A stretch of DNA of 64,000 bases from an uncultured bacterium (GTDB taxonomy: Bacteria; Patescibacteriota; Doudnabacteria; UBA920), in contig CAVVMJ010000010.1 of the NCBI GenBank assembly GCA_963749445.1, positions 254,021-318,020 of the forward strand, given 5' to 3'. The first letter of the stretch is position 1. The number at the start of each line of letters is the position of its first letter. A program made the position numbers and the translations under genes. Of the stretch, positions 4,006 through 57,776 are shown in pieces. A model generated the notes under the pieces. That model was not told where the DNA came from and did no database searches. It saw only the letters and a list, made by a program, of their open reading frames with translations.

Positions 4006-4106
4006 ATTGATGGGCATCTTCGTGAATCCACAAAGTTCGCGCGATAATTATCAGTTGTTAAAAAAATATAATTTGCCTTCAAATAACCACTAAGATGCCC
4101 ATCGAG
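4006..4106. repeat. TIR-element copy D1: about 100-bp intergenic element with imperfect 19-bp terminal inverted repeats (TTGATGGGCATCTTCGTG ... CTAAGATGCCCATCGA)
   Basis: The termini are mutually reverse-complementary, and the same termini recur at 8321, 15276, 31106 and 34990. Confidence 0.7.
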
Positions 4107-8320: not shown

Positions 8321-8422
8321 GTTGATGGGAATCTTCGTGAATGTTTTACCGCCGGCCGATTTTTGTCGGCAGCGGGATAATTACCATCAGCGGTAATACC
8401 AGCAAGAAGATTCCCATCAAAC
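8321..8422. repeat. TIR-element copy D2 (GTTGATGGGAATCTTCGTG ... AAGAAGATTCCCATCAAAC)
   Basis: Terminal inverted repeats with a compensatory change (GGGAATCTT / AAGATTCCC) relative to the other copies. Confidence 0.7.
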
Positions 8423-15275: not shown

Positions 15276-15378
15276 GTTGATGGGCATCTTCTTGCGCCCA
15301 TATCGGTCAACGGATATTGGCTGGCTGATGCATCCATTATCATCAACTGTAATTTAACCACGAAGATGCCCATCAAAC
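15276..15378. repeat. TIR-element copy D3 (GTTGATGGGCATCTTCTTG ... CACGAAGATGCCCATCAAAC)
   Basis: 19-20-bp terminal inverted repeats around a unique interior. Intergenic, downstream of the MFP gene. Confidence 0.7.
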
Positions 15379-33445: not shown

Positions 33446-34930
33446 CTACCTCGTCTGCCACTTCCGGTCGTCTTTGGCCATAAGCTCGTCCGACTGCTTG
33501 GGGCCGTTACGCCCAGGTTTGTACTTATAAAGCGGCAGGCTCCTAAACACCGGGCTGTCGGTAATGCTGTCCACGAATTTCCAGGCGGCCTCTATTTCGT
33601 CGCTACGGATAAATAAGCGCTGGTCGCCCTCCATAAAATCGAGCAGCAGCCGTTCGTAAGCCGACGGGATTTCGCTCTGGAAATTTTTTTGGTAGCCAAA
33701 CTCGTAATCGCCCTGGTGGAGCTGGATGCCAAAGCCGGGCACTTTGTTGTTGAGCCGCAAATGCACGGACTCGTCCGGCTGGATACGGAAAGTCAAAACA
33801 TTGGCCGCGCAGCCTTCAAACAGGCAGCGCGCCTGTTCGCGGAAATGGATGGAAATTTCCGTGAGTTTTTTGCTCAGGCGTTTGCCGGTGCGCAAATAAA
33901 ACGGCACGCCGGCCCAGCGCGGCAAATTTATGTAAGTTTTTAGGGCAAAAAAAGTTTCCGTGGCGCTTGTCCCGCCCTTGGGGCTTAGGCTTTTGATGTC
34001 TTTGGCATAACCTTAGTACTGGCCCAAAACCAGCCGCGCCGGCAACTTGTCCGGCCCCAGAATCTGGAGCGCGTTAAGAACGCGCAGTTTTTCGTTGCGG
34101 ATCATGTCCGCAGTCAGCTGGTACGGCTCTTCCATGGCAATCAACGCCAACATTTGCAAAATATGATTTTGTAAAAAATCTTTAATCGCCCCGGTCCGGT
34201 CGTAATACGCGGCGCGGCCGCCCACGCTGTCTTTTTCCAAAACCGAAATTTCCACGTGCTCAATGAAGCGATTATTCCACAGCGGCTCAAACAAAGAATT
34301 GGCAAAACGCACCACCATCAAATTCTGCACCGTTTCCTTGCCCGCGTAATGGTCAATGCGGTAAATTTGGTCTTCGGCAAAATACTTGAGCAACAGGGCG
34401 TTTAAATCCCGCGCGGATTTTAAATTAAAGCCAAAAGGTTTCTCCGCCAAAATCCGGACTTTGCGCCCGTGTGCCGCGCAAGCGGAAAGCAGGCCGGTCT
34501 GCTTTAAAATTCGGGCGATGGAAGCGAAAAACTGCGGGCTGGTTGCAAAATAATATAACCGGTTAAAACACTTATGCCGAGGCTGTTCTTTGGTTTCCAA
34601 AAGTTTAGTTAGCGGGCCAAAAGACGATACATCCGTAAAATCGCCCTGAAAATAAGTCAAATTGCGCAAAAAATGCTGGCGCTGTTTTTGGGTGATTTTT
34701 TTAATGACCGAAGATTTTTTAACAATGAAGTCAAGATATTTTTCGCTGGTCAGAGGCCTCCTGCCCACGCAAACCAGCTGGAAATCTGCCGGCAGCATGC
34801 CTTCCTGGTCCATATGAAGTAGCGCCGGCAGCAGGTAGTCGGAGGACAAATCGCCGGTGGCGCCAAAGATGGTCAAAACCGTGGGCGGCAACTTTTGAAT
34901 TAAATAATGGAACCCAAAGCCATGTTTCAT
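33446..34930 (-). pseudogene. zwf: glucose-6-phosphate dehydrogenase (zwf) interrupted by a single in-frame TAA at 34013..34015
   Basis: N-terminal ORF has GATGDL, EKPFG, RIDHYAGKE and ends ...LVLGQY*. The same frame continues as GYAKDIKSLSPKGGTSATETFFALKTYINLPRWAGVPFYLRTGKRL..., which is the G6PD C-domain. The two halves are in one frame. Confidence 0.8.
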
Positions 34931-34989
34931 AAAAACCCCGATTTAACTATACATCAAGAAACCTAGTAAGACAATCCCCTGTTAATGCC

Positions 34990-35090
34990 TTGATGGGCAC
35001 CTTCGAGGTTGTAGTTTAGTTGACGGTCATAGACGCGCTGATTAATGAAAATCGACAAACCTATTTTGTCGCACGAAGGTGCCCATCAAG
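34990..35090. repeat. TIR-element copy D5 (TTGATGGGCACCTTCGAGG ... CACGAAGGTGCCCATCAAG)
   Basis: Terminal inverted repeats with compensatory substitutions (GGGCACCTTCG / CGAAGGTGCCC). Confidence 0.7.
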
Positions 35091-35161
35091 CGCATCAAAA
35101 AAATTTATGCCAACTCCGGCATAATAGTGTATAATACCAATAACCATTAACAATTTTTTCT

Positions 35162-36753: not shown

Positions 36754-38706
36754 ATGAAAAGGGATAACATACGAAACATCGCCATTATCGCCCACGTGGA
36801 CCACGGCAAGACTACGCTGGTGGATGCCATGCTAAAGCAAACCCACAGCATCAAAGACGACGCCGCGGATTTGGTAATGGACAGTATGGATTTGGAGCGC
36901 GAGCGCGGCATTACTATCAAAGCAAAAAATGCATCTCTGATATATAATGGGGTAAAAATAAATATTGTAGATACGCCAGGCCACGCGGATTTTGGCGGCG
37001 AAGTGGAGAGAACTTTAAAAATGGCCGACGGCGTCCTGCTTTTGGTGGACGCCAAAGAAGGCCCAATGCCCCAAACCAAATTCGTGCTCAAAAAAGCTTT
37101 GGAGCTCGGACTTAAAGCCATTGTCGTCATCAATAAAGTGGACAAGCCCGACGCCCAGGTTGACCACAGTGTCAATCATACTTTTGATTTGTTCGTCAAA
37201 CTAAACGCCACCCACAACCAATTGGATTTTCCGATTATTTATGCTTCGGGGGTAAGGGGTCTGGCGGATTTGAATTTGGAAAATCTTTTGGAAAAAATCT
37301 CCGCCCAAGGCGGATCCGCCTCCGGCGGAAAATACTCTGGCGAACCCGACGTCTCTCCCCTGTTTGACGCCATCATCAAATACATCCCCGCCCCGGAAGT
37401 GGAAATGGAAGATGCCTTTGCCGTGCAAATTTTGGCTTTGGCTTACGACAACTACTTGGGCCGCCTGGGCATCGGCAAAGTGTTTTCGGGGAGCTGTAAA
37501 AAAAACCAGAACGCCATGCTGATTAAACAGAGCGGCGAGCGGATGACCTCTAAAATTACTTCCCTGCAAATGTACGAAGGCTTAAAACAAATTGACGTGG
37601 AAGAAGCCGTGGCCGGCGACATTGTGGCTTTTGGCGGCTTTGACGACATCCACATTGGCGACGTTTTAACCGATCCCCTAAATCCCAAAACCCTGCCGCC
37701 CGTGGAAATTGAGCCGCCCACAATAAAGATGACCTTTGGCGTCAACACTTCCCCGTTTGCCGGCCGCGAAGGCAAGTATGTGACCTCGCGCCAGTTGCGC
37801 GAACGCTTAATTAAGGAACTGGAAACCAATGTGGCGCTAAAGGTCCAGGGCTTGGAACAGGGTTCGGATTCGTTTTTGGTGTCCGGCCGCGGCGAACTGC
37901 ATTTGGCGGTTTTAGTGGAAACCATGCGGCGCGAAGGTTTTGAACTGCAGGTTTCCCAACCCGAAGTTATCTACCATTATCAAAGGCCGGACGGTTCTTC
38001 GTCCCCTCTCCCTTTGGGAGAGGGCCAGCCTGCCCGCCAAAGCCTTGGCGACGGCGGGGGTGAGGGTTCGGAGAAAATGACAAAACTCGAGCCATACGAA
38101 ATTCTAACGATTGATGTCCCTTCCGAACACCAGGGCGTCGTAATTGAAGAACTCGGCAAGCGCGGCGGACAAATGCAAATCCTGGAAACCGGCCACGGCG
38201 GCGACGTGCACGCCGAATATTTAATCCCTACGCGTGGCTTGATTGGCTTAAAAAACCTGCTGATGACGCGCACCCGCGGCACCGTGGTCATAAATAATCT
38301 TTTTGACAGTTATAGGCCCGTGCACGACATAGACACCCGCAGCAACGAACACGGCAGCTTGATTGCCTCAGAGTCCGGCCAAAGCAACTCTTACGGCTTA
38401 AACAACGCCCAGCAGCGCGGCATGTTGTTTATCGGCCCGGCCGTTGACGTTTACGAGGGCATGGTGGTGGGCAAAAATTCCGTGGACAGCGATTTGGAAT
38501 TAAACGTCTGCCGCACCAAAAAACTCACCAACATCCGCTCCTCCAGCTCCGATGAAGCCATTATTTTAACTCCTCCGCGTCCGGTGGAACTGGACTTCGC
38601 TCTGGAATACATCGGCGCCGACGAGCTGGTAGAAGTTACGCCGCAGTCCATCAGGATAAGAAAGCGGATATTAAACGCCACCGAACGCAAACGCGCCGCG
38701 AAATAA
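36754..38706 (+). CDS. typA: translational GTPase TypA/BipA, with two in-frame insertions derived from repeat elements
   Basis: G1 AHVDHGKTT, G3 DTPGH, G4 NKVD. Collinear with E. coli BipA throughout. It is 650 aa rather than the usual about 605, because of inserts at about 37300..37340 (GGCGGATCCGCC palindrome, peptide AQGGSASGGKYSGEP) and about 37985..38075 (family-B repeat, peptide RPDGSSSPLPLGEGQPARQSLGDGGGEGSE). Confidence 0.9.
   Translation: MKRDNIRNIAIIAHVDHGKTTLVDAMLKQTHSIKDDAADLVMDSMDLERERGITIKAKNASLIYNGVKINIVDTPGHADFGGEVERTLKMADGVLLLVDAKEGPMPQTKFVLKKALELGLKAIVVINKVDKPDAQVDHSVNHTFDLFVKLNATHNQLDFPIIYASGVRGLADLNLENLLEKISAQGGSASGGKYSGEPDVSPLFDAIIKYIPAPEVEMEDAFAVQILALAYDNYLGRLGIGKVFSGSCKKNQNAMLIKQSGERMTSKITSLQMYEGLKQIDVEEAVAGDIVAFGGFDDIHIGDVLTDPLNPKTLPPVEIEPPTIKMTFGVNTSPFAGREGKYVTSRQLRERLIKELETNVALKVQGLEQGSDSFLVSGRGELHLAVLVETMRREGFELQVSQPEVIYHYQRPDGSSSPLPLGEGQPARQSLGDGGGEGSEKMTKLEPYEILTIDVPSEHQGVVIEELGKRGGQMQILETGHGGDVHAEYLIPTRGLIGLKNLLMTRTRGTVVINNLFDSYRPVHDIDTRSNEHGSLIASESGQSNSYGLNNAQQRGMLFIGPAVDVYEGMVVGKNSVDSDLELNVCRTKKLTNIRSSSSDEAIILTPPRPVELDFALEYIGADELVEVTPQSIRIRKRILNATERKRAAK
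37985..38075. repeat. GC-rich palindromic repeat, family B (copy B3), in-frame inside typA
   Basis: cccctctccctttgggagaggg dyad plus aagccttggcgacggcgggggtgagggttcgg, similar to copy B2. Confidence 0.6.
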
Positions 38707-38751
38707 TTTCAATGTGTCATTCCGGCCTCCGAGCCGGAATCTATCTTTAAG

Positions 38752-38790
38752 CAAAACCCCGCTCCGGGCAAAGCCGAGGGGCGGAGTTTT
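38752..38790. terminator. rho-independent terminator after typA
   Basis: aaaaccccgctccgggcaaagccgaggggcggagttttt. Confidence 0.55.
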
Positions 38791-38795
38791 TAAAT

Positions 38796-39314
38796 TTACC
38801 ACTCCTTGTCGTCCGCGCTCGGGCCGTAAATTTTCGGCACCGCGATGTTGTTTAAGCGCATATAAACCGTAAGCTGGCCGCGGTGGTGGACCAAATGGTT
38901 AATAGTATCGCAGACAGTGTTCTTTTTGCTGTCTGTAGCCAAAACCTGATCTTTCATTTTTAAGGAAAAAGGCTTTTCCAAATCCGCGTCCGAAACTTTT
39001 TCCACGGCCCTCTTAGCTGCCGCGAGATTATTGTCAAAAAACTTGAGCATTTCTAAGGTCTTAGTTGGCCGCCCCATTTTAAACGTGGCAAAGTCAATAT
39101 CCCCTTTTTCAATAACGTGCGCGATCCACGCCGGAATACCGGCCACAGTTAAAACCAAATGGCCCATCTTCATGGACTTTTCGTGCGGCTTGTATTCATA
39201 CAAACTTTCCGGCACGCGCTCCAGACATTTCCTGCTGGCAGGCGCCTCGGCCTCCAGTTCCTTTAAATATAACCGTCCTAATGTATCGCTCATAATAGTC
39301 TCCTTTTCCGCCAA
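38796..39314 (-). CDS. DinB/YfiT-like (DinB_2) damage-inducible family protein
   Basis: 172 aa with the HLVHHRGQLTVYMRL motif. The true start may be the internal MSDTL. Confidence 0.6.
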   Translation of the reverse strand: MAEKETIMSDTLGRLYLKELEAEAPASRKCLERVPESLYEYKPHEKSMKMGHLVLTVAGIPAWIAHVIEKGDIDFATFKMGRPTKTLEMLKFFDNNLAAAKRAVEKVSDADLEKPFSLKMKDQVLATDSKKNTVCDTINHLVHHRGQLTVYMRLNNIAVPKIYGPSADDKEW

Positions 39315-39521
39315 AGACGGATCCGCCTTTGGCAGACTTTAATTTTTGATAATATTCTTCCAACGCTGTTCCAATAAATGGTTTGCCATATAAACGGCCC
39401 TAAAAATGTAAACGGATTCCGCGCGCCAACGTTACACATAAAGGAAGCTTTAACAAATTCAACAAAATCGCGTATCTGTAATATATGAAAGGTCGAAATT
39501 AATGTAGAAAGACATAAACTT

Positions 39522-39710
39522 ATGAAAACGCTATCATGCAAGGCCATGGGAGACCCCACCTGCAGCTTTGTCGCCAAAGGCGAAACCGACGAGGAGGTTA
39601 TGGATATGATGATGGAACACATTCAGGAAAAGCACCCGCGGGTTATGGATAACATGGATATGGCAGCCATGAAATCCAAAATGATGTCCAAAATCCAGGA
39701 AGTGATGTAA
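39522..39710 (+). CDS. DUF1059-family small protein
   Basis: 62 aa. MKTLSCKAMGDPTCSFVAKGETDEEVMDMMMEHIQEKH matches the DUF1059 pattern. Followed by a terminator at 39748..39786. Confidence 0.55.
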   Translation: MKTLSCKAMGDPTCSFVAKGETDEEVMDMMMEHIQEKHPRVMDNMDMAAMKSKMMSKIQEVM

Positions 39711-39880
39711 ATGCCCGCCTCCCCTGTCCGCGCCACCTAAAAAATCACCCCGAGCTTTTTCGAAGGGTGATTTTTTTGTTTGGCAAAACTCCGCACACAA
39801 TAAAGCTTCGGTTATATTTTACCTACCTATCCTTGATGGGTCGGGTGGGGGCGAACCCACAATAGGCATATATTTTTGAA

Positions 39881-40009
39881 TTATTTCTCAATAAAAAACA
39901 AACCCGTCGCAACGACTAAAAAAATAATGCCAGCCCTCAGCCAAACCTCGCTTTGCGCCGGGTTAGTTTTGTGTAAGCTCAAAGTGAAGAAATTATACCA
40001 AAATGTCAT
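39881..40009 (-). CDS. small hydrophobic peptide (42 aa) with an LSLHKTNPAQS motif, paralogous to 41251..41361
   Basis: ATG-to-TAA ORF below the track cutoff. Shares an about 50-nt conserved segment (ctttgcRccgggttRgttttgYgYaagctcaaRRtgaRg) with the second copy. Coding status uncertain. Confidence 0.35.
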   Translation of the reverse strand: MTFWYNFFTLSLHKTNPAQSEVWLRAGIIFLVVATGLFFIEK

Positions 40010-40117
40010 TTTAAAGTATATTTGGAGGTGTCTATGCCTTGGATTTCCATGTACTTGATTAAATTCGGTTTGGCAATATTGTTTAGAAATTCTATTGCTT
40101 TCAGCAAATCCGGCATT

Positions 40118-40366
40118 TTAGCTTTTTTTACCGGCTGACCAAAGACCTTTCTTTAGAAGCTGGTCATTTTTTAAAACGCCAATTTGTTTGTCCAGCTGTT
40201 TCTTTTCTTCCCCGGTTTTCTTATGCACGCCTCCGCCGTCCTTCATTTTGGCCAGCATGATAATTAAATTTTCGCGGTATTTTTTAAGCTCGTAATAATC
40301 GTCTACCCTCTCCTGTTCTTTTCTCTTTTCGTTCAAAGTTGGCCTGCCTGTTCTTTTGTTTGGCAT
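40118..40366 (-). CDS. hypothetical small basic protein (82 aa)
   Basis: ORF in an AT-rich islet. Lys/Glu-rich and helical. Confidence 0.4.
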   Translation of the reverse strand: MPNKRTGRPTLNEKRKEQERVDDYYELKKYRENLIIMLAKMKDGGGVHKKTGEEKKQLDKQIGVLKNDQLLKKGLWSAGKKS

Positions 40367-40379
40367 ATATTTTATAATG

Positions 40380-40562
40380 TTAATACTTATACGGCGTGCC
40401 TTTAAAGCCTAATTTTAGCATTTCTTCCGGCGAACGCAAAAAGGGATTTTCGCGATCCAAATTTTTAATAAATTCTTGGATCAAATGTTCCGTTTCCCCC
40501 GGCTCAAAATTAAATTCAGGTTCAAATACTTCTCTGGGTACAAACAGGCCCGGGCGATTCAT
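40380..40562 (-). CDS. hypothetical small acidic protein (60 aa)
   Basis: ORF in an AT-rich islet. Confidence 0.35.
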   Translation of the reverse strand: MNRPGLFVPREVFEPEFNFEPGETEHLIQEFIKNLDRENPFLRSPEEMLKLGFKGTPYKY

Positions 40563-40604
40563 CTCTAAAACTATTTCCTCCTCGTCGGGGTTATGCAGAG
40601 TTTA

Positions 40605-41228
40605 TCAACGAGTTGTCAATTTGAAAGTTTCAGTAATAGTTTTCCAGAATTTGATTGCGGAAAAACCATAATAATCATTTATTGCCGGGGATTCAATTTT
40701 AACAAAAGAGTTATCTAAATAAAATTCAACAAAATTTCTACCCCGGAGGTCTAATTCAGGGTCGTCTTTAAGAAGTTCAGGATCGCTATTAAGAAATCTA
40801 TATTTAATTCCTTGGGGGTTGGTAAACACGGCAGCTGATTCCCATTCCTGCTCTGGAGTGGAAGATTTTTTTACCTCAACATAGAAAGGAGCCGGTTTAA
40901 CTGGCTCTTTCATCTCTGGCGGTGCACCAGGAGGGATTTCCGCAAAACCAGACCATCCGATTTCTATTGAGCAAAAATTTTCATTGATTTTCTTTACTTT
41001 TATATCATCCCAATTTTTAAATACCGGAATCTTAAAAGTAACGCCGGAAATACCATCACAATAAAAATCTTGATTTTCAATTACCCCACTAGTATTCGGT
41101 GATGTAGAAACAGTATTATCCATAGTTTTGTGAAAAGGGTTAAATATTGCAACAGCCAAAATTAATATCAATAAAAGTAGTAGTAGTAATAGTATTAGTA
41201 TAGCAAATATTGAAAGTTTTTTTAACAT
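40605..41228 (-). CDS. hypothetical secreted or membrane-anchored protein with a poly-Leu N-terminal helix
   Basis: 207 aa. N-terminal LLLLLLLLLILILAVAIF anchor, then a hydrophilic domain. No recognisable family. Confidence 0.45.
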   Translation of the reverse strand: MLKKLSIFAILILLLLLLLLILILAVAIFNPFHKTMDNTVSTSPNTSGVIENQDFYCDGISGVTFKIPVFKNWDDIKVKKINENFCSIEIGWSGFAEIPPGAPPEMKEPVKPAPFYVEVKKSSTPEQEWESAAVFTNPQGIKYRFLNSDPELLKDDPELDLRGRNFVEFYLDNSFVKIESPAINDYYGFSAIKFWKTITETFKLTTR

Positions 41229-41250
41229 TATTGGGTGCCAGCTTGGCCAT

Positions 41251-41361
41251 CTAGTGGGGATGCTTGCCGGAACTTTGCACCGGGTTGGTTTTGCGCAAGC
41301 TCAAGATGAGGAAAATTATTCCGAGGGCGGCGAAGATTGTGGAGATGATGTTTGGGATCAT
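41251..41361 (-). CDS. small hydrophobic peptide (36 aa, MIPNIISTIFAALGIIFLILSLRKTNPVQSSGKHPH)
   Basis: ATG-to-TAG ORF. Paralogous segment to 39881..40009. Confidence 0.35.
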   Translation of the reverse strand: MIPNIISTIFAALGIIFLILSLRKTNPVQSSGKHPH

Positions 41362-41399
41362 ATTTAATATCTATACGGCGTGATTTTATTTAAACCATA

Positions 41400-41654
41400 C
41401 TATTTCACCAACCCCATATCTTTTGCCCAGGCTGCCAGTTGCCGGTCTCTCTTCATGTCTTTCTTAAGGATGGTTACAGCCTCGTCCAATGCTTTTTGCA
41501 ATTCAGTCCTGATTTCCTGTTCCTTATTTGGAATTTTTTCCAGTAAATCCTGGAATTCTAAAATAGGATCCTTAAAATTATCAAACTGATCGTTTTTGTA
41601 CATGCGCAGCACCGTTTCGGCACGTGTTATAAGTTCTTGATCATTGTTTGTCAT
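41400..41654 (-). CDS. hypothetical small helical protein (84 aa)
   Basis: ORF in an AT-rich islet. Charged and helical. No family recognised. Confidence 0.4.
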   Translation of the reverse strand: MTNNDQELITRAETVLRMYKNDQFDNFKDPILEFQDLLEKIPNKEQEIRTELQKALDEAVTILKKDMKRDRQLAAWAKDMGLVK

Positions 41655-42249
41655 ATATTTGTAGGGTTATTTATAAATTTAATTGAAAGAAGGAGTAATG
41701 GATATTATATATTTTAATAATGTTTTTTACAGTTCTCGACTTGGAACTTTTTAAAGTTGGGGTTGTTTTGTTTTTGCTTGTGTTGCATATTATCCATAGT
41801 CGCATAAAACTTATCAAACCTGTTCGCCTTTTGCAATCTTGTTTTTCCAGTAATCTATCGCTTTAATGCTGTGCTCAAAATATTGATCGAAATTGTAGTC
41901 CCTGAGCAAACTCAAGCACAATCCTCTAAGCATTTTGTCGGTTTCTATTAAACTTTTCATACGTTTATTTACTCATACTATACAATAAAAAGTAAATTTT
42001 AAAAGTTTTATTACATTTTAATATTATCCATATTTTTCCCCATTAGCTTATATAACTAATTTTACATTTTTCGAAATAATTGAAAGCTTTTTCTCTATTT
42101 TATTTAAGCATATACCCAAAGCCTGGTTATTGTAAATATCCCTTATTTTAGGCAATATTAAAAGGCCAGCCCTTCGGAAGGCTGAGGGCTGCGCCGGGCT
42201 GACACTTTAAAACATCCTTACAAACTTGAGAATGTAAGGATGATATTAT

Positions 42250-42459
42250 TCATCCGATAATATTCTGCACGCGGCCGACTTGGCCGCTTTGTAGGCGGAC
42301 TTTGATGCCGTGGGGGTGGAATTGGGAGTTGGTTAAAATGTCCGCCACCAAGCCGCGTGTGAGTTTGCCGGTTCTTTGATCTTCCTTAAGCACAATGTCC
42401 ACTTCCAGTCCGGGTGATATGTTTTCGCGATTTTGTCCGTCCATAATATATCCCTCCAC
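42250..42459 (-). CDS. YwbE-family (DUF2196) small protein
   Basis: GQNRENISPGLEVDIVLKEDQRTGKLTRGLVADILTNSQFHPHGIKVRLQSGQVGRVQNI matches the YwbE consensus along its full length. Confidence 0.8.
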   Translation of the reverse strand: MEGYIMDGQNRENISPGLEVDIVLKEDQRTGKLTRGLVADILTNSQFHPHGIKVRLQSGQVGRVQNIIG

Positions 42460-42461
42460 TC

Positions 42462-42548
42462 CTCCTCGCCCCTCGATTTCACTCGGGGCGACCCTGAGCG
42501 TAAGCCGAATGGGTCGGATGCACTCGTCGTCGGTCGGGATGGAATACC
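42462..42548. repeat. GC-rich palindromic repeat, family A (copy A3)
   Basis: About 85% identical to the right half of 13545..13715. Confidence 0.7.
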
Positions 42549-43778
42549 CTAAGCGGCGGTTTCTTTATCCCGCCGCAAAAGCCAGTAGCCCAAACCCGCG
42601 GCAATTAGAGCGGCAAAGCCGCCGACGGCTAGCCCCCAGCGCGGACCAACATACTGTCCTATAAACCCGATTATCGGCCCGCCAATGGGCGTGGAGCCAA
42701 GGAAAGCCATGGCCCAAAACGACATCACCCTGCCGCGCATTTGCGGGTCGCTTTCCAGCTGCAGCGTGGTATTGCCCAGGGCCAAAAAATTTATGGAATA
42801 AAACCCAACGGCCACCATGGCTATGAGCACCAAAGTAAACTTAGGCAAAACCGCAGCCAGCAGGACGGTAACGCCAAAAAACAGCGCGGCTTTTACCAGC
42901 GCGCCCGCGGTAGTGGTTTTGCGACTGGCCGTGTATAGCCCGCCGGCTATGGAACCAACCCCCATGGCCACGGTAAGCGCGGCGTAAGTGCCGGCATTGC
43001 CGTGAAATGTAAACTGCGCCACCAGCGGCAGAATTACGGAGAACTCGTAAGTGAGCGTGCCGATTATGGCCATCATAAGCAGCGTGTCGCGCAAAATTTT
43101 GTTGGACTTGATGTATCGCCAGCCTTCGCCCAACTGGCCTTTGGCGCGTTCGGCCGCAGGAGCGGAGCTTAATTCCTTTGAACGCATCATAAACAAAGCC
43201 CCCAGCACGGCAATAAAAGAAATCGCATTAATTAAAAAACACGGCGCCAAACCCAAAGAGGCAATCACGGCGCCGGCAATGGCCGGGCCAATCACGCGCG
43301 CCAAATTCACCATAGTGGAATTCAACGAAATGGCATTGGCCACGCTGTCTTTGCCCACCATCTCAAAAATAAAAGTCTGGCGGGTGGGATTGTCTATAAC
43401 ATTGACCAATCCCAAACCCAGCGCCAAAACGTAAACCATCCACAACTGCACGCTGCCGGTTACCATGAGCAGCCACAAAATCAAAGCCAGCAGTCCGGCC
43501 GAAGTTTGGGTAAAATATAAAACTTTGCGCTTACTGAAACGGTCGGCCACGATGCCGCCCAGCGGGGCTAAAAACAGCATGGGCAAAAATTGCACCGCGG
43601 CTATAAGTCCGAGCTGAGCGCCGGAATTGGTCAGCTTAAGCACCAGCCAGGCCTGGCCAATGGTTTGCATCCAGGTGCCGCATAAAGAAACGGCCTGGCC
43701 GATAAAGTACAGGCGGTAATTACGGAGTTTAAGTGAGGCAAAAGTCTGGTTGCTGAAGTTTAAAAAATTTTTTCGCAT
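42549..43778 (-). CDS. MFS transporter
   Basis: 409 aa, 12 TMS, with MFS motif A (GGIVADRFSKRKVL). Confidence 0.75.
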   Translation of the reverse strand: MRKNFLNFSNQTFASLKLRNYRLYFIGQAVSLCGTWMQTIGQAWLVLKLTNSGAQLGLIAAVQFLPMLFLAPLGGIVADRFSKRKVLYFTQTSAGLLALILWLLMVTGSVQLWMVYVLALGLGLVNVIDNPTRQTFIFEMVGKDSVANAISLNSTMVNLARVIGPAIAGAVIASLGLAPCFLINAISFIAVLGALFMMRSKELSSAPAAERAKGQLGEGWRYIKSNKILRDTLLMMAIIGTLTYEFSVILPLVAQFTFHGNAGTYAALTVAMGVGSIAGGLYTASRKTTTAGALVKAALFFGVTVLLAAVLPKFTLVLIAMVAVGFYSINFLALGNTTLQLESDPQMRGRVMSFWAMAFLGSTPIGGPIIGFIGQYVGPRWGLAVGGFAALIAAGLGYWLLRRDKETAA

Positions 43779-43799
43779 GATGGAAATTTGATAAAAAAG

Positions 43800-43875
43800 T
43801 TTCTGTCATCCCGGAATTTTTCACGCAGGCGATTATCATCAGTCGTGAAAAATATCCGGAATGACACTGAAATGC
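43800..43875. repeat. GTCATCCCGGAAT...ATTCCGGAATGAC hairpin element (family C)
   Basis: gtcatcccggaatttttcacg ... cgtgaaaaatatccggaatgac inverted repeat. Related copies at 54655..54720 and 38712..38740. A variant (gtcattgcgagcgg) at 17755..17785. Confidence 0.55.
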
Positions 43876-43876
43876 T

Positions 43877-44941
43877 TTAAATAAACAGCTGCGCCAAAAT
43901 CAAGTCCAACAAAACCCGCGGCGGGGTGGAGGTGGTTTTAAGCTCCTTGTCCAGCGCCGCCAATTTATTGAGCGTCTGCTTGACTATATCCGGCTTAAAC
44001 CGGCCAGCGATTTTTTTGAGCACATAAAGCCGGCCGCTTTTCCAAGCCGTAAGGCTTAAAATTTTGTCATCCGAGATTTTGCGGGCCAGCAAATCCGAAA
44101 GCGCGTAAATATTGCGGAACTGTTCGCTGAGCAGAGCGTTTAGCTGGATAATTTGCGCCTTAGTGTCGCCCTCGCTTAAAAACTTACCGATAAGCTCCAA
44201 AGCCGCCTGTTTGTTATGGTCGCCTATGGCATTGATAATTTTAAACACATCCACTTCCCCGTTTTCGGAAACCAGATTGTTAACGTCCGCTTCTTTGATT
44301 TCCTGACCGTTTGCGTATGCGATTAATTTGCGGATTTCGGAATCCGCCTGCCACAGACTGTAAATTTCTTCGCCCGCGATAAGTTTGCCGCCCCCTCGAC
44401 TTTGCTCGGGGCGGCCCTGAGCCTTGCCGAATGGGCCGCCCGCCCGGATTTCTTTGGCGTCATCCCGCCCCAATTTTTTGGCCAAAAACGCTGCCGCGCC
44501 CTTGCTTATTGTGCTGTTTAACTCTTTGGCGCGGCTGGTAATCCATTTATCCAAATCCGCGCCGTGCGGCAAATCAAATTGTTTAACTTCCGCGCCCTTG
44601 TGCGCCAGCCACTGCTTATTATTGGACAGGCGCTTGTCTACTTTATCCTCCTCAAACACAATAACATTTTTGCCGACCACTAGCTTATCGGCAATTTCCT
44701 GATTATAATCATATCCGGCCAAAAGATTTTGTAGAACCACGACTTTGGTTTTGGAAAACAAATCCTGGCCAAAAAGCCCTGACAGTTGCGGCCGCTCCTC
44801 TGCCGAAACAAAAAATTCCGCCTCGGCTTTATGCTTTTTGGCCAAAGAGGAAATCTGGCTGTCTTTAGAAAAATTGTCCGGTCCGAGAAAGAAAAACAAC
44901 ATAAATTTTGGTGGGTTGGGTGGGGATCGGACCCACGACAC
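43877..44941 (-). CDS. holA: DNA polymerase III subunit delta (HolA), carrying an in-frame family-A repeat insertion
   Basis: The N-domain (LFFFLGPDNF...KVVVLQN) and C-domain (VFKIINAIGDHNKQAALELIGKFLSEGDTKAQIIQLNALLSEQFRNI) match HolA. A segment of about 25 aa (DAKEIRAGGPFGKAQGRPEQSRGGG) is encoded by the repeat at 44385..44448. The likely start is the internal MLFFFLG. Confidence 0.65.
   Translation of the reverse strand: MSWVRSPPNPPKFMLFFFLGPDNFSKDSQISSLAKKHKAEAEFFVSAEERPQLSGLFGQDLFSKTKVVVLQNLLAGYDYNQEIADKLVVGKNVIVFEEDKVDKRLSNNKQWLAHKGAEVKQFDLPHGADLDKWITSRAKELNSTISKGAAAFLAKKLGRDDAKEIRAGGPFGKAQGRPEQSRGGGKLIAGEEIYSLWQADSEIRKLIAYANGQEIKEADVNNLVSENGEVDVFKIINAIGDHNKQAALELIGKFLSEGDTKAQIIQLNALLSEQFRNIYALSDLLARKISDDKILSLTAWKSGRLYVLKKIAGRFKPDIVKQTLNKLAALDKELKTTSTPPRVLLDLILAQLFI
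44385..44448. repeat. GC-rich palindromic repeat, family A (partial copy A4), in-frame within holA
   Basis: ctcgactttgctcggggcggccctgagccttgccgaatgggcc is about 80% identical to the core of A2/A3. Confidence 0.6.
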
Positions 44942-45005
44942 GCGGCTTAAGAGGCCGCTGCTCTACCAACTGAGCTACCAACCCATGTGCAAACAATTGA
45001 CAATT
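44929..45005 (-). tRNA. tRNA-Lys (anticodon CTT), with encoded CCA
   Basis: Manual fold of the reverse complement: acceptor GGGTTGG/CCAACCC, anticodon stem GCGGC/GCCGC, loop CTCTTAA, T-arm GTGGG-TCCGATC-CCCAC. Confidence 0.85.
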
Positions 45006-46857: not shown

Positions 46858-46916
46858 AATTCTCTAATTCTCTAATTCTCTAATTCTCTAATTCTCTAAT
46901 TCTCTAATTCTCTAAT
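46858..46916. repeat. tandem octanucleotide repeat (TCTCTAAT) x about 6.5 in the pilM-pilN spacer
   Basis: Read directly: ttctctaattctctaattctctaattctctaattctctaattctctaattc. Confidence 0.9.
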
Positions 46917-47967
46917 TCAACCCGCGCATGGCCAATCCCACGGCAGTGGCAAATCCCAAGGATTCGCCCGGATCTAAAGGCTGCGACTTTAACCCCAAAA
47001 TCCCCTGCCAGGGATTGCCCAGCTCCACGGGCGGGCTGCCGAACTCGCTGAACTGCGGGCTTAAAAACTCGGGCAAATTTTTTAGCCGGGCGGCGCCGCC
47101 CGCCAATAAAATTTTCTTAACCTGCTTGCCGGAATGCTCGCCGTGGAACCTTAAAATGCTTTTGATCTCCGCGCTGAGATTGTTCAGCACCGGCAGTAGC
47201 GCGATTTTGATATTCGGGTAGTCGGCGGTGTTGGCAATACCCACTTTCTTTTTGATTTCCTCGGCCTTGACGTTGGATACACCCAAAATTTTGGCAATAT
47301 TCTCGGTAAAATTATTACCGGCAATGGGCACAGTGGAAGTGAACTGTAAATTTCCATCCTCCACCATGACCAGGCTGCTGCGAAACGCGTCCAAATCCAC
47401 AATCAATACCGTGTCCCGGCCGCCGGGCGGCAATAATGCCCGCAGGCAGCTTTGCGACTCCACCTCCAAGGCCGCAGCCTTGACGCCGGCACTGTCCAAC
47501 AGCGACAAATATTGGTCCACAAAATCCTTTGGGGAAGCCACAATTAAAATATTAAGCTTGCCCTCGCTGCTGCCGATTTTTTGCCAGTCCAAATCGACCT
47601 GGTCCACGGGCAAAGGGATAAAACTTTCGGCTTCCACCGGCACCGCGGACTGCGCCTCACTGTCGCTCATTTGGGGAATCTGAATAACCCGGACAAAGGA
47701 CTTGGATTCCGGAAGGCTGACGACGGCGTAATCAGTGTGCAGCTGCCCGTGCTGGCACTTCTGCAAACTGGCTTTCAACATTTGGCTAAAGGCTTTGCCG
47801 TCGGCAAAAGCTTCGTTGACTATCATGCCCTTAGGCAGCGGCACGTCGCTAAAGGCGCGCAGTTTGACTTCCTTGCCGCTCTTGCCCAGCTCCAAAATCT
47901 TCAAGGCGCTGCCGCTGACGTCCAAACCAAAGGCTTTTTTTTGATTGCTAAACAGTTGCCAGGACAT
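46912..47967 (-). CDS. pilM: type IV pilus assembly protein PilM (actin-like ATPase fold)
   Basis: 351 aa, with PilM/FtsA-like motifs throughout. Confidence 0.8.
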   Translation of the reverse strand: MSWQLFSNQKKAFGLDVSGSALKILELGKSGKEVKLRAFSDVPLPKGMIVNEAFADGKAFSQMLKASLQKCQHGQLHTDYAVVSLPESKSFVRVIQIPQMSDSEAQSAVPVEAESFIPLPVDQVDLDWQKIGSSEGKLNILIVASPKDFVDQYLSLLDSAGVKAAALEVESQSCLRALLPPGGRDTVLIVDLDAFRSSLVMVEDGNLQFTSTVPIAGNNFTENIAKILGVSNVKAEEIKKKVGIANTADYPNIKIALLPVLNNLSAEIKSILRFHGEHSGKQVKKILLAGGAARLKNLPEFLSPQFSEFGSPPVELGNPWQGILGLKSQPLDPGESLGFATAVGLAMRGLN

Positions 47968-48185
47968 ATTTACCCGCCTAAATTTGCAATTAGCTATAAA
48001 TAATTTTTAAATTTGATAAATCCAATCCAATTAGACTCTATTTCCTAAACCCAGAGCAAATTTCGGCGGGTTAACTCCGCCTAAATTTTGCCTTAGTTTG
48101 TAAAGTTTATTTTTAATTCCACCCACTAAACTATTATTTTTGCAAAGATGATAAAAATTTCGCAAAATTTTGGCGGGTAAATTAA
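47968..48185. promoter_or_regulatory. conserved leader element of about 210 bp (copy E1), upstream of pilM
   Basis: Block-wise conserved with 51635..51860 (upstream of pilB). Shared blocks: TTTACCCGCCTAAATTTGC, AAATCCAATCCAATTA, GGCGGGTTAACTCCGCCTAAATTTTGCC, TTTTGCAAAG, TTTTCGCAAAATTTTGGCGGGTRAATT. Internal GGCGG/CCGCC dyads. Confidence 0.7.
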
Positions 48186-49882: not shown

Positions 49883-51634
49883 CTACTCTTTGCTCACCCG
49901 CACAATTTCTTCCACCGTCGTTATCCCCTTGGCCGCTTTTATAAAACCGTCCTCCCACATCAAAACCATGCCCTCCTTTTCCCCCTGCTCCTGGATTTCC
50001 GGCGCGCTATTGTGGGCCATGATCATCTGCGAAATGGCCGGGCTGACTTCCAGAATTTCGTGGATGCCGACGCGGCCGCGGTAGCCGGTATGGCTACACT
50101 TGTCGCAGCCTTCGCCTTTGAAAAATTGGATGTCCGCCAATGATTTGGCTTTTTCGGGCGCCGCACCGCGCCGCGCCAAAACCGGCAGGAGTTTTTCCAA
50201 ATGGAATTGCTTGGCCAGGCTGCCGAGCACAACCTCGTCCAGCTTAATGGCCGCTTTGCAGTCCTTGCAGATCACGCGGACCAGGCGCTGCGCCAGCACC
50301 GCGTTGATGGTGGAAGAGATCAAGTAAGGCTCCACGCCGATGTCCAAAAGCCGGGGCAAAGCCGAGGCCGCGTCGTTGGTGTGGAGAGTGGAAAACACAA
50401 TGTGGCCGGTCATGGCCGCGTGTACCGCTTCTTCGGCCGTTTCCTTGTCGCGGATTTCGCCGATCATAATGATATTCGGGTCCTGCCGCAGAAGCGCCCT
50501 TAGGCCGATGTCAAAAGTCAGGCCGATTTTGGGGTTGATTTGCATCTGGTTGGCGCCGACCAGCCGGTATTCCACCGGGTCTTCAATGGTGGAAATGTTC
50601 ACGCTCTTGGTATTCAGCATGCTCAAGACCGTATACAGCGTGGTGGATTTGCCGCTGCCCGTGGGGCCGGTCACCAGCATCATGCCGTGCGGCTTTTTGA
50701 TGTTGCGCGTAATCAGGTCAATGCCTTCCGGCTCAAAACCTAAATCTTCCAAAGACGCGGCCTTGGCTGACTCGTCCAGCAGGCGGATGACGACTTTTTC
50801 CCCGTCGAAAATCGGGATCGCGGACACGCGCATGGAAAATTTATAGCCTTCCTTTTCAATCTTAAACCGGCCGTCCTGGGGCAGGCGATGCTCGTCAATT
50901 TTTAAATTGGTCAAAACCTTGATGCGCGCCACAATCGCCGCCTGGATGACTTTGGGCAAAGTCATAACGTCATGGAGCACGCCGTCAATGCGGTAACGGA
51001 CAATCACCGCATTCTCCTGCGGCTCAATGTGGATGTCGGAAGCTTTTTCAAAAATCGCATACTCAATTAACGTGTCCACCACGCGGATGACGGGGATTTC
51101 CTCGGCCATTTTTTTCAGGCCGTCCTCGGCGCTCTCCCCTTCCGGACTGGCTTTCAACGGCTTGTCGGAACCTGTGAACAGGTGTTTGATTTCCTTTTCC
51201 AGGCTGGAGTGGTATTTGGACAGGCCGAACTCCAAACTGCTTTTGCCAATGAGAAAAATTTTAATCTTCAGGCCGGTCTTTTTTTGGATGAATTCCTTGG
51301 TCTGCAGGTCCGACGGGTCGGTCATAGCCAATGACAGGTCTTCCTTGGTTTTGGCGAAACTGATGACCTGATGACGATGGGCAATCGGCTCGGGCACCAG
51401 ATTGAGCACGTCCTGGGCAATGGTTTCGTTGCGCAAATCCACCACCGGCGCGCCCGTGGCTTCGCTTTTTATGGCCAAAAGCTGGTCTTCGGTCACGATT
51501 TTTTTCTCAACCAAAAAATCTTCCCACGACGTAGGCGCCTTTTGGGAATTTAAATCCTTTTCCAGCTGGGCGATGCTGGCATCGGTCAAAAGCTTTTTGC
51601 TTTTTAACACTAAATTGAGTTCCTTTTTATCCAT
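49883..51634 (-). CDS. pilB: type IV pilus assembly ATPase PilB (GspE family) with N-terminal GSPII_E_N domains
   Basis: 583 aa. Walker A GPTGSGKST, Asp and His boxes, and a tetracysteine motif (CKDC...CDKC). Confidence 0.9.
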   Translation of the reverse strand: MDKKELNLVLKSKKLLTDASIAQLEKDLNSQKAPTSWEDFLVEKKIVTEDQLLAIKSEATGAPVVDLRNETIAQDVLNLVPEPIAHRHQVISFAKTKEDLSLAMTDPSDLQTKEFIQKKTGLKIKIFLIGKSSLEFGLSKYHSSLEKEIKHLFTGSDKPLKASPEGESAEDGLKKMAEEIPVIRVVDTLIEYAIFEKASDIHIEPQENAVIVRYRIDGVLHDVMTLPKVIQAAIVARIKVLTNLKIDEHRLPQDGRFKIEKEGYKFSMRVSAIPIFDGEKVVIRLLDESAKAASLEDLGFEPEGIDLITRNIKKPHGMMLVTGPTGSGKSTTLYTVLSMLNTKSVNISTIEDPVEYRLVGANQMQINPKIGLTFDIGLRALLRQDPNIIMIGEIRDKETAEEAVHAAMTGHIVFSTLHTNDAASALPRLLDIGVEPYLISSTINAVLAQRLVRVICKDCKAAIKLDEVVLGSLAKQFHLEKLLPVLARRGAAPEKAKSLADIQFFKGEGCDKCSHTGYRGRVGIHEILEVSPAISQMIMAHNSAPEIQEQGEKEGMVLMWEDGFIKAAKGITTVEEIVRVSKE

Positions 51635-51860
51635 TTACCCGCCTAAATTTGCGGTTACCCACAAATAATTTTTAAATTTATTCAAAATCCAATCCAATTA
51701 ATTCAAACTCTGTTTGTTATCAGGGCAAATTTTGACGGGTTAACTCCGCCTAAATTTTGCCCAAATTGGCAAATTTATATTCTCAACCGCCAAAATTGTC
51801 ATTTTGCAAAGCTTATCGAGAGTTTTCGCAAAATTTTGGCGGGTGAATTTTTTGTTTCAA
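51635..51860. promoter_or_regulatory. conserved leader element of about 210 bp (copy E2), upstream of pilB
   Basis: See 47968..48185. Confidence 0.7.
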
Positions 51861-56564: not shown

Positions 56565-57776
56565 TTATTTATCTTTCTTGCCCCACTTTTTTATGGCCGC
56601 GTCGTATTCTTTGCCGTAGTTGCCGTCTATGGCCTGCCTCATGGCGCGGACGCCGGCTAAGGTGCCCATGGGGTGGGAGGTTAGGGCGCCGCCGACGTTG
56701 GCCATCCAGTTGGCATGGCCGACTTCGGCTTTAATATACTCCACGAGCCCAGGCTGCATACCGCAGCTAAGTGCCGGCACACAGTTAATATCGTTAAGAT
56801 CCTGGATAATGCGCTTGGTGCGCTCGGTTTCGTCGTTAAGATAGCCGCCGATCATGCCCACATGCAAAGTACTGCAGCCGCTTAAACCGGCCAGGTTAAA
56901 AATTACCCGCTCGTTAATGTTATAGGGACCGGTATTTAAAACTTTGTCCCCGCTTTTTTGGAAATGCATAAGCAAAGGCAAATCCAGTTCGCGCAGGGAT
57001 TTATAAACCCCTAAACCGCAATGGAAATTTATATGGATGCCGTTACCGCCCAAATCCGCCACCAATTTGGCCCGCTTTAAAATATGCGCGGGGTCGGAAC
57101 TCATGGACACGCAATAAAAAACTTTGGCGCCGCTGTCCCTTAAATATTCCATAACCAGCGGCACGCGTTTTTCTATGGGGCAATGCGCCGGATCGGACAA
57201 AATTTCGTCTTCCTTGATAAAATTACAGCCCCCGTCTATAAGCTGTTTGACCAAATCCAAGTGCCGCTCCGGCGACAGCCCGACTTTGGGCTTGACTATG
57301 CCGCCGAACAAAATTTTATTTTCCGGGACGCCGCAATATTCCTTCATCTCCCGCAGGCCTACTTTAGGTCCCAAAAGGCACTTGCGCATATTCGGGGTCA
57401 ACCGGACATCCAGCAGCTCGCAGCCCTCAATGATGTCTATGTCCATTTGTCCCCCCATGGTTTGCACCAGGAGCTGAGAGACGCCGTCAGTCTGGAAATT
57501 AATATTGGCTTCCGGAAAGGCAATCTGCACCGTCCCCTGCTTTAAGCGCTCCAGACTTTTTTCATCGCTGAGCACCAGGCAGGAATGGTGCTCAAACAGC
57601 TCATCGGTTTCAAATTCCGAACGGTTTTTGGGATTGCCCACCGACTGGCCGATGGCCAAATCCCACGCCGCGTCCCTTAAGTTGGTCTGGCTTTTTAAGC
57701 GGTAAGTCGCGATGTAATATTTATTAAAAAATTCTTCCGAAAGCTCGGAGCTCGATCCCCGAAAAATATCAATCAT
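56565..57776 (-). CDS. RuBisCO large-subunit family protein, probably a RuBisCO-like protein (type IV RLP)
   Basis: Strong match to the RuBisCO core LFGGIVKPKVGLSPERHLDLVKQLIDGGCNFIKEDE (KPK, carbamylation Lys and acidic metal ligands present). The HIHRA-equivalent segment reads IHINFH, so the catalytic His/Arg look substituted. About 403 aa, shorter than bona fide RuBisCO. Confidence 0.65.
   Translation of the reverse strand: MIDIFRGSSSELSEEFFNKYYIATYRLKSQTNLRDAAWDLAIGQSVGNPKNRSEFETDELFEHHSCLVLSDEKSLERLKQGTVQIAFPEANINFQTDGVSQLLVQTMGGQMDIDIIEGCELLDVRLTPNMRKCLLGPKVGLREMKEYCGVPENKILFGGIVKPKVGLSPERHLDLVKQLIDGGCNFIKEDEILSDPAHCPIEKRVPLVMEYLRDSGAKVFYCVSMSSDPAHILKRAKLVADLGGNGIHINFHCGLGVYKSLRELDLPLLMHFQKSGDKVLNTGPYNINERVIFNLAGLSGCSTLHVGMIGGYLNDETERTKRIIQDLNDINCVPALSCGMQPGLVEYIKAEVGHANWMANVGGALTSHPMGTLAGVRAMRQAIDGNYGKEYDAAIKKWGKKDK

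Follow-up and report, generated by a model that had tools for sequence, protein, structure and literature searches.

Hypervariable islets between convergent conserved genes, in which the flanks are syntenic, the gap differs widely in size and content, GC content and codon usage are atypical, and most genes are small orphans, are the closest described systems to the locus reported here. We analyzed a 64,000-nt stretch of DNA (hereafter, the window) from an uncultured bacterium of the Doudnabacteria (Patescibacteriota; contig CAVVMJ010000010.1, positions 254,021 to 318,020). In this window, an AT-rich islet of small open reading frames (ORFs) lies between bipA and holA and resembles such islets in all of the respects listed above. 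Two of its ORFs, referred to here as pepA and pepB, each contain a copy of a 50-nt segment. In the reading that we prefer, and to which we give an even chance of being correct, the islet consists of lineage-specific accessory genes in a bipA-holA hotspot, and pepA and pepB are translated single-pass membrane micro-proteins that share a partial duplication. The more solid and practical result is that the bipA-holA gap varies within the lineage, which makes it a promising site in which to search for strain-specific accessory genes. The islet itself is genuine but ordinary, of the typical orphan-rich kind, and it leaves current understanding unchanged.

The islet in the bipA-holA gap

We tested for synteny by comparing the proteins of the window, using tblastn, with loci that had been fetched with BipA and the neighboring major facilitator superfamily (MFS) transporter as queries. 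The conserved genes bipA and holA converge, with the islet between their 3' ends, and both flanks are syntenic in relatives. On the bipA side, the synteny covers BipA itself and the AI-2E transporter; on the holA side, it covers holA, tRNA-Lys(ctt), tRNA-Arg(tcg), three small ORFs, and PilM. The gap between bipA and holA measures 61 nt in two relatives (L089 and L090); in L091 and L086, it is approximately 0.6 kb and 2.2 kb long, respectively, and in L085 it reaches 5.8 kb, with a cargo (Fic, NERD, PspC, and PadR) that is unrelated to the islet. Here, the gap spans 5.2 kb (window 38707-43876) and holds DinB, DUF1059, the islet, ywbE, and the MFS transporter. None of the islet ORFs was present in any fetched locus, relatives included. 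The relatives compared are distant, with BipA identities of 76% or less, so a recent gain cannot be dated.

A first-pass annotation of the window had described the islet as AT-rich, and its GC content (35.6% over window positions 39800-42160, compared to a window mean of 48.3%) is indeed the minimum among all 2.36-kb segments of the window. At third codon positions, the GC content (GC3) is 0.39 to 0.44 for the islet, with orf207 at 0.25 and the other islet ORFs at approximately 0.44, compared to a host-gene value of 0.60 ± 0.06. For orf207, the synonymous codon score (-0.29) falls below the 1% quantile of host gene pieces, and the codon usage of this ORF is clearly foreign. As far as this is testable, the islet has the character of DNA that was acquired or turns over quickly, placed in a variable hotspot. 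Genome-typical codon usage and conserved synteny in relatives, which had been named earlier as arguments against an acquired island, were both absent.

A domain scan of the ORFs detected no integrase or transposase in or near the islet, and the only border candidates are the 50-nt direct repeats and a weak piece resembling the 3' half of tRNA-Lys. This piece is 77% identical over 35 nt to residues 42-76 of the intact tRNA-Lys(ctt) at 44909-44984 (E value 0.023, its best non-self match); it lies approximately 5 kb from that gene and 84 nt downstream of repeat copy A. A tRNA-like remnant at one edge would be a further likeness to hypervariable islets. Unlike them, however, this islet has no integrase, transposase, or clear att sites, and its tRNA-like piece is weak (E value 0.02) and does not adjoin the intact tRNA-Lys. 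Integration of an island at tRNA-Lys was considered and rejected: the neighbor of that tRNA is holA (DNA polymerase III delta), which is syntenic in relatives, and there is no integrase, so the piece cannot mark integration at that tRNA. The piece also shares CCCATCAAGG with a palindrome family of the window (described below) and could instead be a degenerate arm of that family, which leaves its origin ambiguous.

The genome loci nearest to the neighboring MFS transporter come from Candidatus Doudnabacteria metagenome-assembled genomes (MAGs), with 74 to 76% amino-acid identity, and the GTDB collection that we searched holds no species-level representative of the host organism. Four of the islet ORFs are on record, in one 372,259-bp contig (NCBI/ENA) and in Logan run ERR10755942, from which the Logan contig is identical to window 40141-42488. 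For near-identical strains, exact-protein look-ups returned sample ERR10755942 only.

The 50-nt segment and the mini-ORFs pepA and pepB

The first-pass annotation had reported two mini-ORFs sharing a segment of about 50 nt at about 80% identity. Both mini-ORFs exist, and self-comparison aligned the two copies of the segment over 50 nt at 82% identity with one gap (E value 1.4e-7). A degenerate 32-nt version of the 50-mer had exactly 2 matches in the window, compared to 0.00 in shuffles. The segment encodes F(F/L)(T/I)LSL(H/R)KTNP(A/V)QS, which includes the LSL(H/R)KTNP(A/V)QS motif noted earlier, and the alignment of the pepA and pepB peptides (14 shared residues) was equalled or beaten by 0 of 3000 shuffles.

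Searches for further copies gave consistent results. A codon-aware 32-nt pattern had 0 matches in the GTDB species genomes (596 Gb), the JGI metagenomes, and IMG/VR; when both 50-mers were compared by blastn with the fetched loci (2.4 Mb from relatives and more distant genomes), the matches were at chance level only; and the whole islet, also by blastn, matched nothing in phage and plasmid collections. One match to the 50-mer, in L096, was checked and dismissed. The possibility had been raised that the 50-mer occurs many times in noncoding contexts. Judging from the sequences searched, it is not a dispersed repeat, with two full copies in the window and none in the collections and loci covered.

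The 50-mer most likely marks a partial duplication common to two unannotated single-pass membrane micro-proteins. Each of the two peptides has a hydrophobic stretch of approximately 20 residues. The motif had been placed next to a hydrophobic helix, which holds for both peptides, but the order differs: pepB runs from an N-terminal transmembrane (TM)-like helix through LSLRKTNPVQS to a basic tail, and pepA from a short hydrophobic N terminus through LSLHKTNPAQS to a TM-like helix. The duplication would encode the end of the hydrophobic segment together with a basic juxtamembrane motif, (R/H)KTNPxQS, which would face the cytoplasm by the positive-inside rule. The data show the composition, the repeat, the absence of synteny and of family membership, and the orf207 fold; we infer that pepA and pepB are translated and that they have this membrane topology, and they may have a joint envelope role with orf207.

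To score coding potential, we used a codon log-odds model trained on the confident genes of the window and compared the scores with those of true gene pieces of equal length. The log-odds were +6.1 for pepB and +4.0 for pepA, the latter being the best of its six frames, and from the calibration of the log-odds we estimate a combined likelihood ratio of approximately 4 to 5 for the two. The 3-base periodicity of pepB is strong, with T at second codon positions (T2) at 0.41 and C at third positions (C3) at 0.57 (p 0.0007); the corresponding values for its N-terminal 19 codons are T2 0.63 and C3 0.68 (p 0.0003). Over the 14 shared codons, the ratio of nonsynonymous to synonymous change (pN/pS) in the pepA/pepB frame is 0.25 (4 synonymous and 4 conservative nonsynonymous substitutions; Fisher p 0.03), and in the antisense frame, the only other one open over the shared block, it is 0.40 (p 0.32). 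Both mini-ORFs start with ATG and occupy the only spaces of any size in the gene row, and an ATGA overlap couples pepA to orf36. Overall, the pN/pS ratio, the codon periodicity of pepB, and the ATGA overlap modestly favor two single-pass membrane peptides.

Several observations weigh against pepA and pepB as translated micro-proteins. Their similarity halts abruptly at the 50-mer, with the helix on opposite sides of the motif, and the core of the segment recurs inverted within pepA, which the peptide motif does not explain. Public annotation calls neither mini-ORF. An antisense ORF at copy B, with a score of +6.9, does no worse than pepB, and pepA has no significant periodicity (p 0.32). Because both strands are open across the 50-mer, the ORFs alone are no proof of coding, and the pN/pS test draws on 8 substitutions. 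In addition, the peptide motif is unmatched in the GTDB, JGI, and IMG/VR collections, so the peptides have no comparative support from any collection searched. We also considered whether the plus-strand ORF at copy B is a decayed DUF1059 paralogue; this similarity was not significant (p 0.26).

The abrupt boundaries bear on a different explanation, in which the 50-mers are a scar at the DNA level, with mini-ORFs that are incidental or left over from genes. In one version, the two copies are att-like direct repeats that arose when a 1.3-kb segment (orf207, orf60, orf82, and orf36) inserted into a small native gene with two TM helices; pepB would be what remains of its N-terminal half and pepA what remains of its C-terminal half; in another, they are a duplication or gene-conversion junction made during turnover of the hotspot. 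We regard a scar as a serious but rather unlikely account. The similarity ends sharply and continues for approximately 10 nt over a frame-breaking indel, and the helix stands before the core in pepB and after it in pepA, as two halves of one gene would show. These two helices are weakly alike (GIIFL), and the N-terminal part of pepB has host-like C-ending codons (GC3 0.75), unlike the islet. The foreign codon usage of orf207 between the repeats, the location in a demonstrated insertion hotspot, the tRNA 3'-like piece downstream of copy A, and the inverted copy of the core would fit a scar as well. Against this account stand the lack of an integrase or transposase, the merely 82% identity of the repeats, and the uneven foreignness of the genes between them, since orf82, orf60, and orf36 resemble orf84, which lies outside. 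The codon style of the pepB N-terminal half (ATC, TTC) also differs from that of the pepA C-terminal half (ATT, TTT), and the pN/pS ratio of 0.25 suggests constraint at the protein level. A 52-aa two-TM hybrid protein, reconstructed from the two halves, had no homologue in the fetched loci or NCBIfam and was set aside as a candidate.

The inverted core copy raises another alternative, that the 50-mer is a cis-acting element (a regulatory RNA, an attenuator or terminator, or a protein-binding DNA site) and that selection keeps the core and not the peptide. Matches to the 18-nt core, AAAACNAACCCGKYGCAA, number 3 across the window, compared to 0.11 expected. The third copy (AAAACAAACCCGTCGCAA), which the first-pass annotation had not noted, is inverted, lies 40 nt from copy A, and is also among the long inverted repeats of the window; with copy A, it makes an inverted pair (A/A') with a 16/18-bp stem and then a U-run at the operon end. 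Copy B holds a palindrome, TTGCGCAA, and the openness of both strands is compatible with such an element too. Nevertheless, we consider a cis-acting element very unlikely. The A/A' hairpin is not unusually stable (fold z-scores of -1.2 and -1.8), copy B has no inverted partner, and the two 50-mer copies have ordinary fold energies (z-scores of -0.02 and -0.42) and different predicted structures. The variable positions of the 50-mer break base pairs with no compensation, two copies being too few for a covariation test, and the substitution pattern fits a reading frame. Rfam gave no credible match on the islet; the only hit was a Na+ riboswitch model, at 18 bits compared to a gathering threshold of 40.5 (E value 1.3), and it lies off the 50-mer. 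The suggestion in the first-pass annotation that the 50-mer is an RNA element is thus not borne out by the folding results or by Rfam.

The other islet ORFs and comparison with known systems

The islet is a compact row of eight minus-strand ORFs with spacers of -4 to 42 nt, except for 159 nt between orf48 and orf84 (Table 1). It would probably be transcribed as one minus-strand unit of closely spaced small genes, most of them orphans. The minus-strand ORFs of 82, 60, 207, and 84 aa that had been listed before are all present, and the one given as about 49 aa has 48. The coding log-odds for orf84 (+17.2), orf82 (+16.6), orf36 (+10.7), orf60 (+10.1), and orf48 (+8.6) are within the range of true gene pieces and well above those of their own alternative frames, and public annotation calls four of these five as genes, orf48 included. 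Shine-Dalgarno sites are mostly absent in this genome (7 of 41 confident genes were positive by a loose test); therefore, ribosome-binding sites are not discriminating here, and their absence is no argument against translation.

We searched all eight ORFs against family profiles and found nothing significant in Pfam or NCBIfam, with all scores far below curated cutoffs. Matches in PHROGs and PADLOC were marginal (best E value 0.0064), the PADLOC models concerned not being toxin-antitoxin (TA) models, and searches of PDB sequences with the islet ORFs gave nothing significant. The earlier description of the ORFs as family-less is accurate with regard to such matches, but not all of them lack relatives: orf207 has three homologues and orf84 has two or three remote ones. 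Searches of viral contigs and phage records with orf207 and orf84 returned no relatives, and no viral fold matched. For orf82, no homologue was found among 5.8 billion proteins. A k-mer-indexed search with orf82 and orf84 returned self matches only, and a full HMMER search of 1.84 billion representatives with orf84 detected three weak relatives: P0010 (36% identity, E value 2e-6), P0011, and a repeat protein, which share with orf84 the motif (Y/F)DNFKD...(E/D)(F/C)(R/Q)DL(L/I). A structure check of the 82- and 84-aa proteins had been recommended. It gave a four-helix protein for orf84 (AlphaFold2 single-sequence predicted local distance difference test [pLDDT] score of 86.5), but this fold had no meaningful match in the PDB.

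According to its predicted model (pLDDT 72.5, moderate), orf207 is an alpha-beta-alpha sandwich that matches solved Mog1/PsbP-like members at 6 to 15% sequence identity, with no profile match. We read it on this basis as a membrane-anchored, exported protein with a predicted Mog1/PsbP-like fold. The fold recalls the type VI secretion system (T6SS) immunity proteins Tsi3, TplEi, and Tli; unlike those cases, however, no T6SS or effector gene lies near orf207, and the fold is functionally promiscuous. As a separate observation, the orf207 homologue P0008 lies directly downstream of tRNA-Arg(ccg) on a Patescibacteria-like contig (L002 3295-3947, L003 795-1447), a placement which hints that the orf207 family travels with tRNA-associated variable regions.

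The first-pass annotation had interpreted the islet as two tandem, paired modules, each with a hydrophilic protein of about 83 aa and a small hydrophobic peptide, and had suggested that they are TA, bacteriocin-immunity, or membrane-effector pairs. Hydrophobic peptides do lie tightly beside small hydrophilic proteins in an acquired islet, and pepB immediately follows orf84 (38 nt). However, pepA is split from orf82 by orf36, an ORF that had been overlooked and that interrupts the module. Despite similar starts (AAATATATGNCAAACAA), equal lengths, and a BLASTP E value of 0.024 over 17 residues, shuffle tests rejected orf82 and orf84 as diverged paralogues (p 0.10 local, 0.35 global), so the modules share the 50-mer only. 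There is no match to a TA, defense, or bacteriocin family, and the pairing is not conserved: orf82 has no homologue, and the orf84 homologue P0010 in L164, the only one with readable DNA, has no peptide gene beside it. Moreover, neither peptide has a double-glycine or Sec leader, and the Mog1/PsbP-like fold occurs widely and does not single out immunity proteins. The TA-like pattern that is visible by eye is thus unbacked by homology or conserved pairing, and we think two functional modules very unlikely indeed.

The comparison with individual systems leads to similar results. Type I TA toxins (Hok, TisB, and Fst-like) resemble pepA and pepB in having 36 to 42 aa, one hydrophobic helix, and a charged tail, and an antisense reading or transcript is conceivable at the islet. 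In contrast to those toxins, pepA and pepB have no family match or identified antisense RNA, the strands folded show no unusual RNA structure (z-scores of approximately 0 for the two 50-mer copies), and the peptides are embedded in an operon rather than standing alone. For type II TA systems, we found no recognizable toxin or antitoxin family (e.g., RelE/ParE, MazF, VapC, or HicA; RHH, HTH, or Phd) among the eight ORFs. Class II bacteriocins and their immunity partners likewise place small peptide genes beside small proteins in accessory islets. Unlike these bacteriocins, pepA and pepB lack a leader or family match and resemble membrane anchors, not secreted amphipathic peptides, and the interval 38.7-43.9 kb encodes neither an ABC exporter nor a C39 peptidase.

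Integron cassette arrays and clusters of attC sites lacking integrases (CALINs) also consist of same-strand rows of small, mostly orphan ORFs with atypical composition. In contrast to these arrays, the islet has spacers (-4 to 42 nt) that are too short for attC (57 to 141 nt), the 159-nt spacer between orf48 and orf84 contains no inverted repeat, and the single imperfect inverted repeat of the islet lies inside pepA, with arms that fit the R''/R' consensus poorly. No IntI was detected among the window ORFs scanned. We ruled out an integron cassette array on the spacing and the lack of attC-like repeats, a judgment made without an attC covariance model.

Small envelope proteins are suspected mediators of the episymbiotic lifestyle in Patescibacteria. 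Should the two peptides prove real, a Patescibacteria genome would gain two unannotated micro-proteins, alongside a helical family that is rare and a PsbP-like protein that is exported. A bolder extension of the accessory-gene reading, which we consider very improbable, is that pepA and pepB found a lineage-restricted micro-membrane family that is co-expressed with the exported Mog1/PsbP/Tsi3-like protein and with de novo-like helical mini-proteins. The islet would then be a swappable envelope or host-interaction cassette (effector/immunity-type) in an episymbiont hotspot, with the 50-mer and its inverted core serving as a recombination handle.

Feature coordinates and further observations in the window

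The coordinates of the islet features are collected in Table 1. Promoter-like matches at the islet reach at most approximately 2 times the shuffle expectation.

Table 1. Features of the islet in window coordinates; ORFs are listed in the order of the gene row.
Feature	Coordinates	Strand	Remarks
AT-rich islet	39790..42160	-	read as a single minus-strand unit between two terminator-like hairpins; GC 35.6%
Terminator-like hairpin, islet head	42185-42166	-	follows ywbE/DUF2196
Candidate sigma-70-like promoter	42107..42136	-	TTTACA-18-TATGCT at islet head; consensus match only, no evidence of function
orf48	41960-41814	-	48-aa hydrophilic orphan; marginal similarity to N-terminal half of orf84 (p 0.014-0.06); 159 nt to orf84
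orf84	41654-41400	-	84 aa; 38 nt to pepB
pepB	41361-41251	-	36 aa; 22 nt to orf207
Repeat copy B	41273..41322	-	within pepB
orf207	41228-40605	-	membrane-anchored or secreted, predicted Mog1/PsbP-like fold; public annotation 172 aa from internal ATG; 42 nt to orf60
orf60	40562-40380	-	60-aa orphan; only islet ORF with Shine-Dalgarno-like GAGGAGG upstream; 13 nt to orf82
orf82	40366-40118	-	82-aa Lys/Glu-rich orphan; 1 nt to orf36
orf36	40116-40006	-	36 aa, between orf82 and pepA; begins 1 nt past orf82 stop; stop overlaps pepA start as ATGA
pepA	40009-39881	-	42 aa; last ORF in row
Repeat copy A	39951..39999	-	within pepA
Third, inverted copy of 18-nt repeat core	39895..39912	+	inside 3' part of pepA
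tRNA-Lys 3'-half-like piece (T-arm to CCA)	39834..39867	-	between pepA stop and terminator; weak evidence
Terminator-like hairpin closing islet	39748..39765	-	shared back to back with DUF1059 gene

Within the islet, three minus-strand sites, at window positions 42031, 41797, and 41123, carry the start context A(A/C)TATGGATAATA (Met-Asp-Asn), the last being the internal ATG used for orf207 by public annotation. This recurrence is statistically at chance level, yet it adds to an impression of sequence recycled inside the islet. Two Logan contigs from ERR10755942 (L001 and L165) both stop at window 40141-40161, inside orf82, with an overlap of approximately 20 nt; the shared end could be a graph branch, i.e., strain variation in the sample.

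Next to the islet, the MFS_3-type transporter (window 42549-43778, minus strand) has relatives at 44 to 76% identity in loci L004-L083. These are scattered among Patescibacteria, Frankia and other Actinomycetota, Chloroflexota, Dormiibacterota, and even Micrarchaeota MAGs, which suggests that the transporter has spread horizontally and widely. In Doudnabacteria representatives, PadR-PspC comes after the transporter, a pair also present in the bipA-holA gap of L085. On the other flank, BipA (window 36754-38706, plus strand) carries a lineage-variable Gly/Ser/Pro-rich insertion (here ...PDGSSSPLPLGEGQPARQSLGDGGGEGSEK...); L087 has a longer version, L085 a shorter one, and L086 almost none.

The window holds 17 long inverted repeats, compared to approximately 0.2 expected, and these include a family of long intergenic palindromes with four copies in 64 kb (4007-4105, 8322-8420, 15277-15376, and 34988-35091). 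In this family, the arms TTGATGGGCATCTTCGTG and CACGAAGATGCCCATCAA flank a variable spacer of approximately 63 nt. The family has no Rfam match at the gathering threshold, and its members are possibly REP-like (repetitive extragenic palindromic) or MITE-like (miniature inverted-repeat transposable element) elements or long-stem terminators of the lineage. A further repeated sequence, GCAAATTTAGGCGGGTAA, at 47968-47992 and 51635-51659, stands directly upstream of the ATG of the PilM gene (46912-47967) and of a 583-aa gene in the same cluster (49883-51634), both on the minus strand, with an inverted partner at 47969-48074; the pilus genes may share it as a leader or regulatory site.

ARAGORN starred a transfer-messenger RNA (tmRNA) at 56613-56976 (plus strand; tag peptide ADHAHMQSTAAA) that overlaps a 403-aa minus-strand ORF. 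Rfam has no tmRNA there at the gathering threshold, and the call is probably a false positive. The glucose-6-phosphate dehydrogenase ORF (34013-34930, minus strand) has 305 aa and covers the first 101 of the 296 positions of the C-terminal domain; this gene may be truncated or frameshifted.

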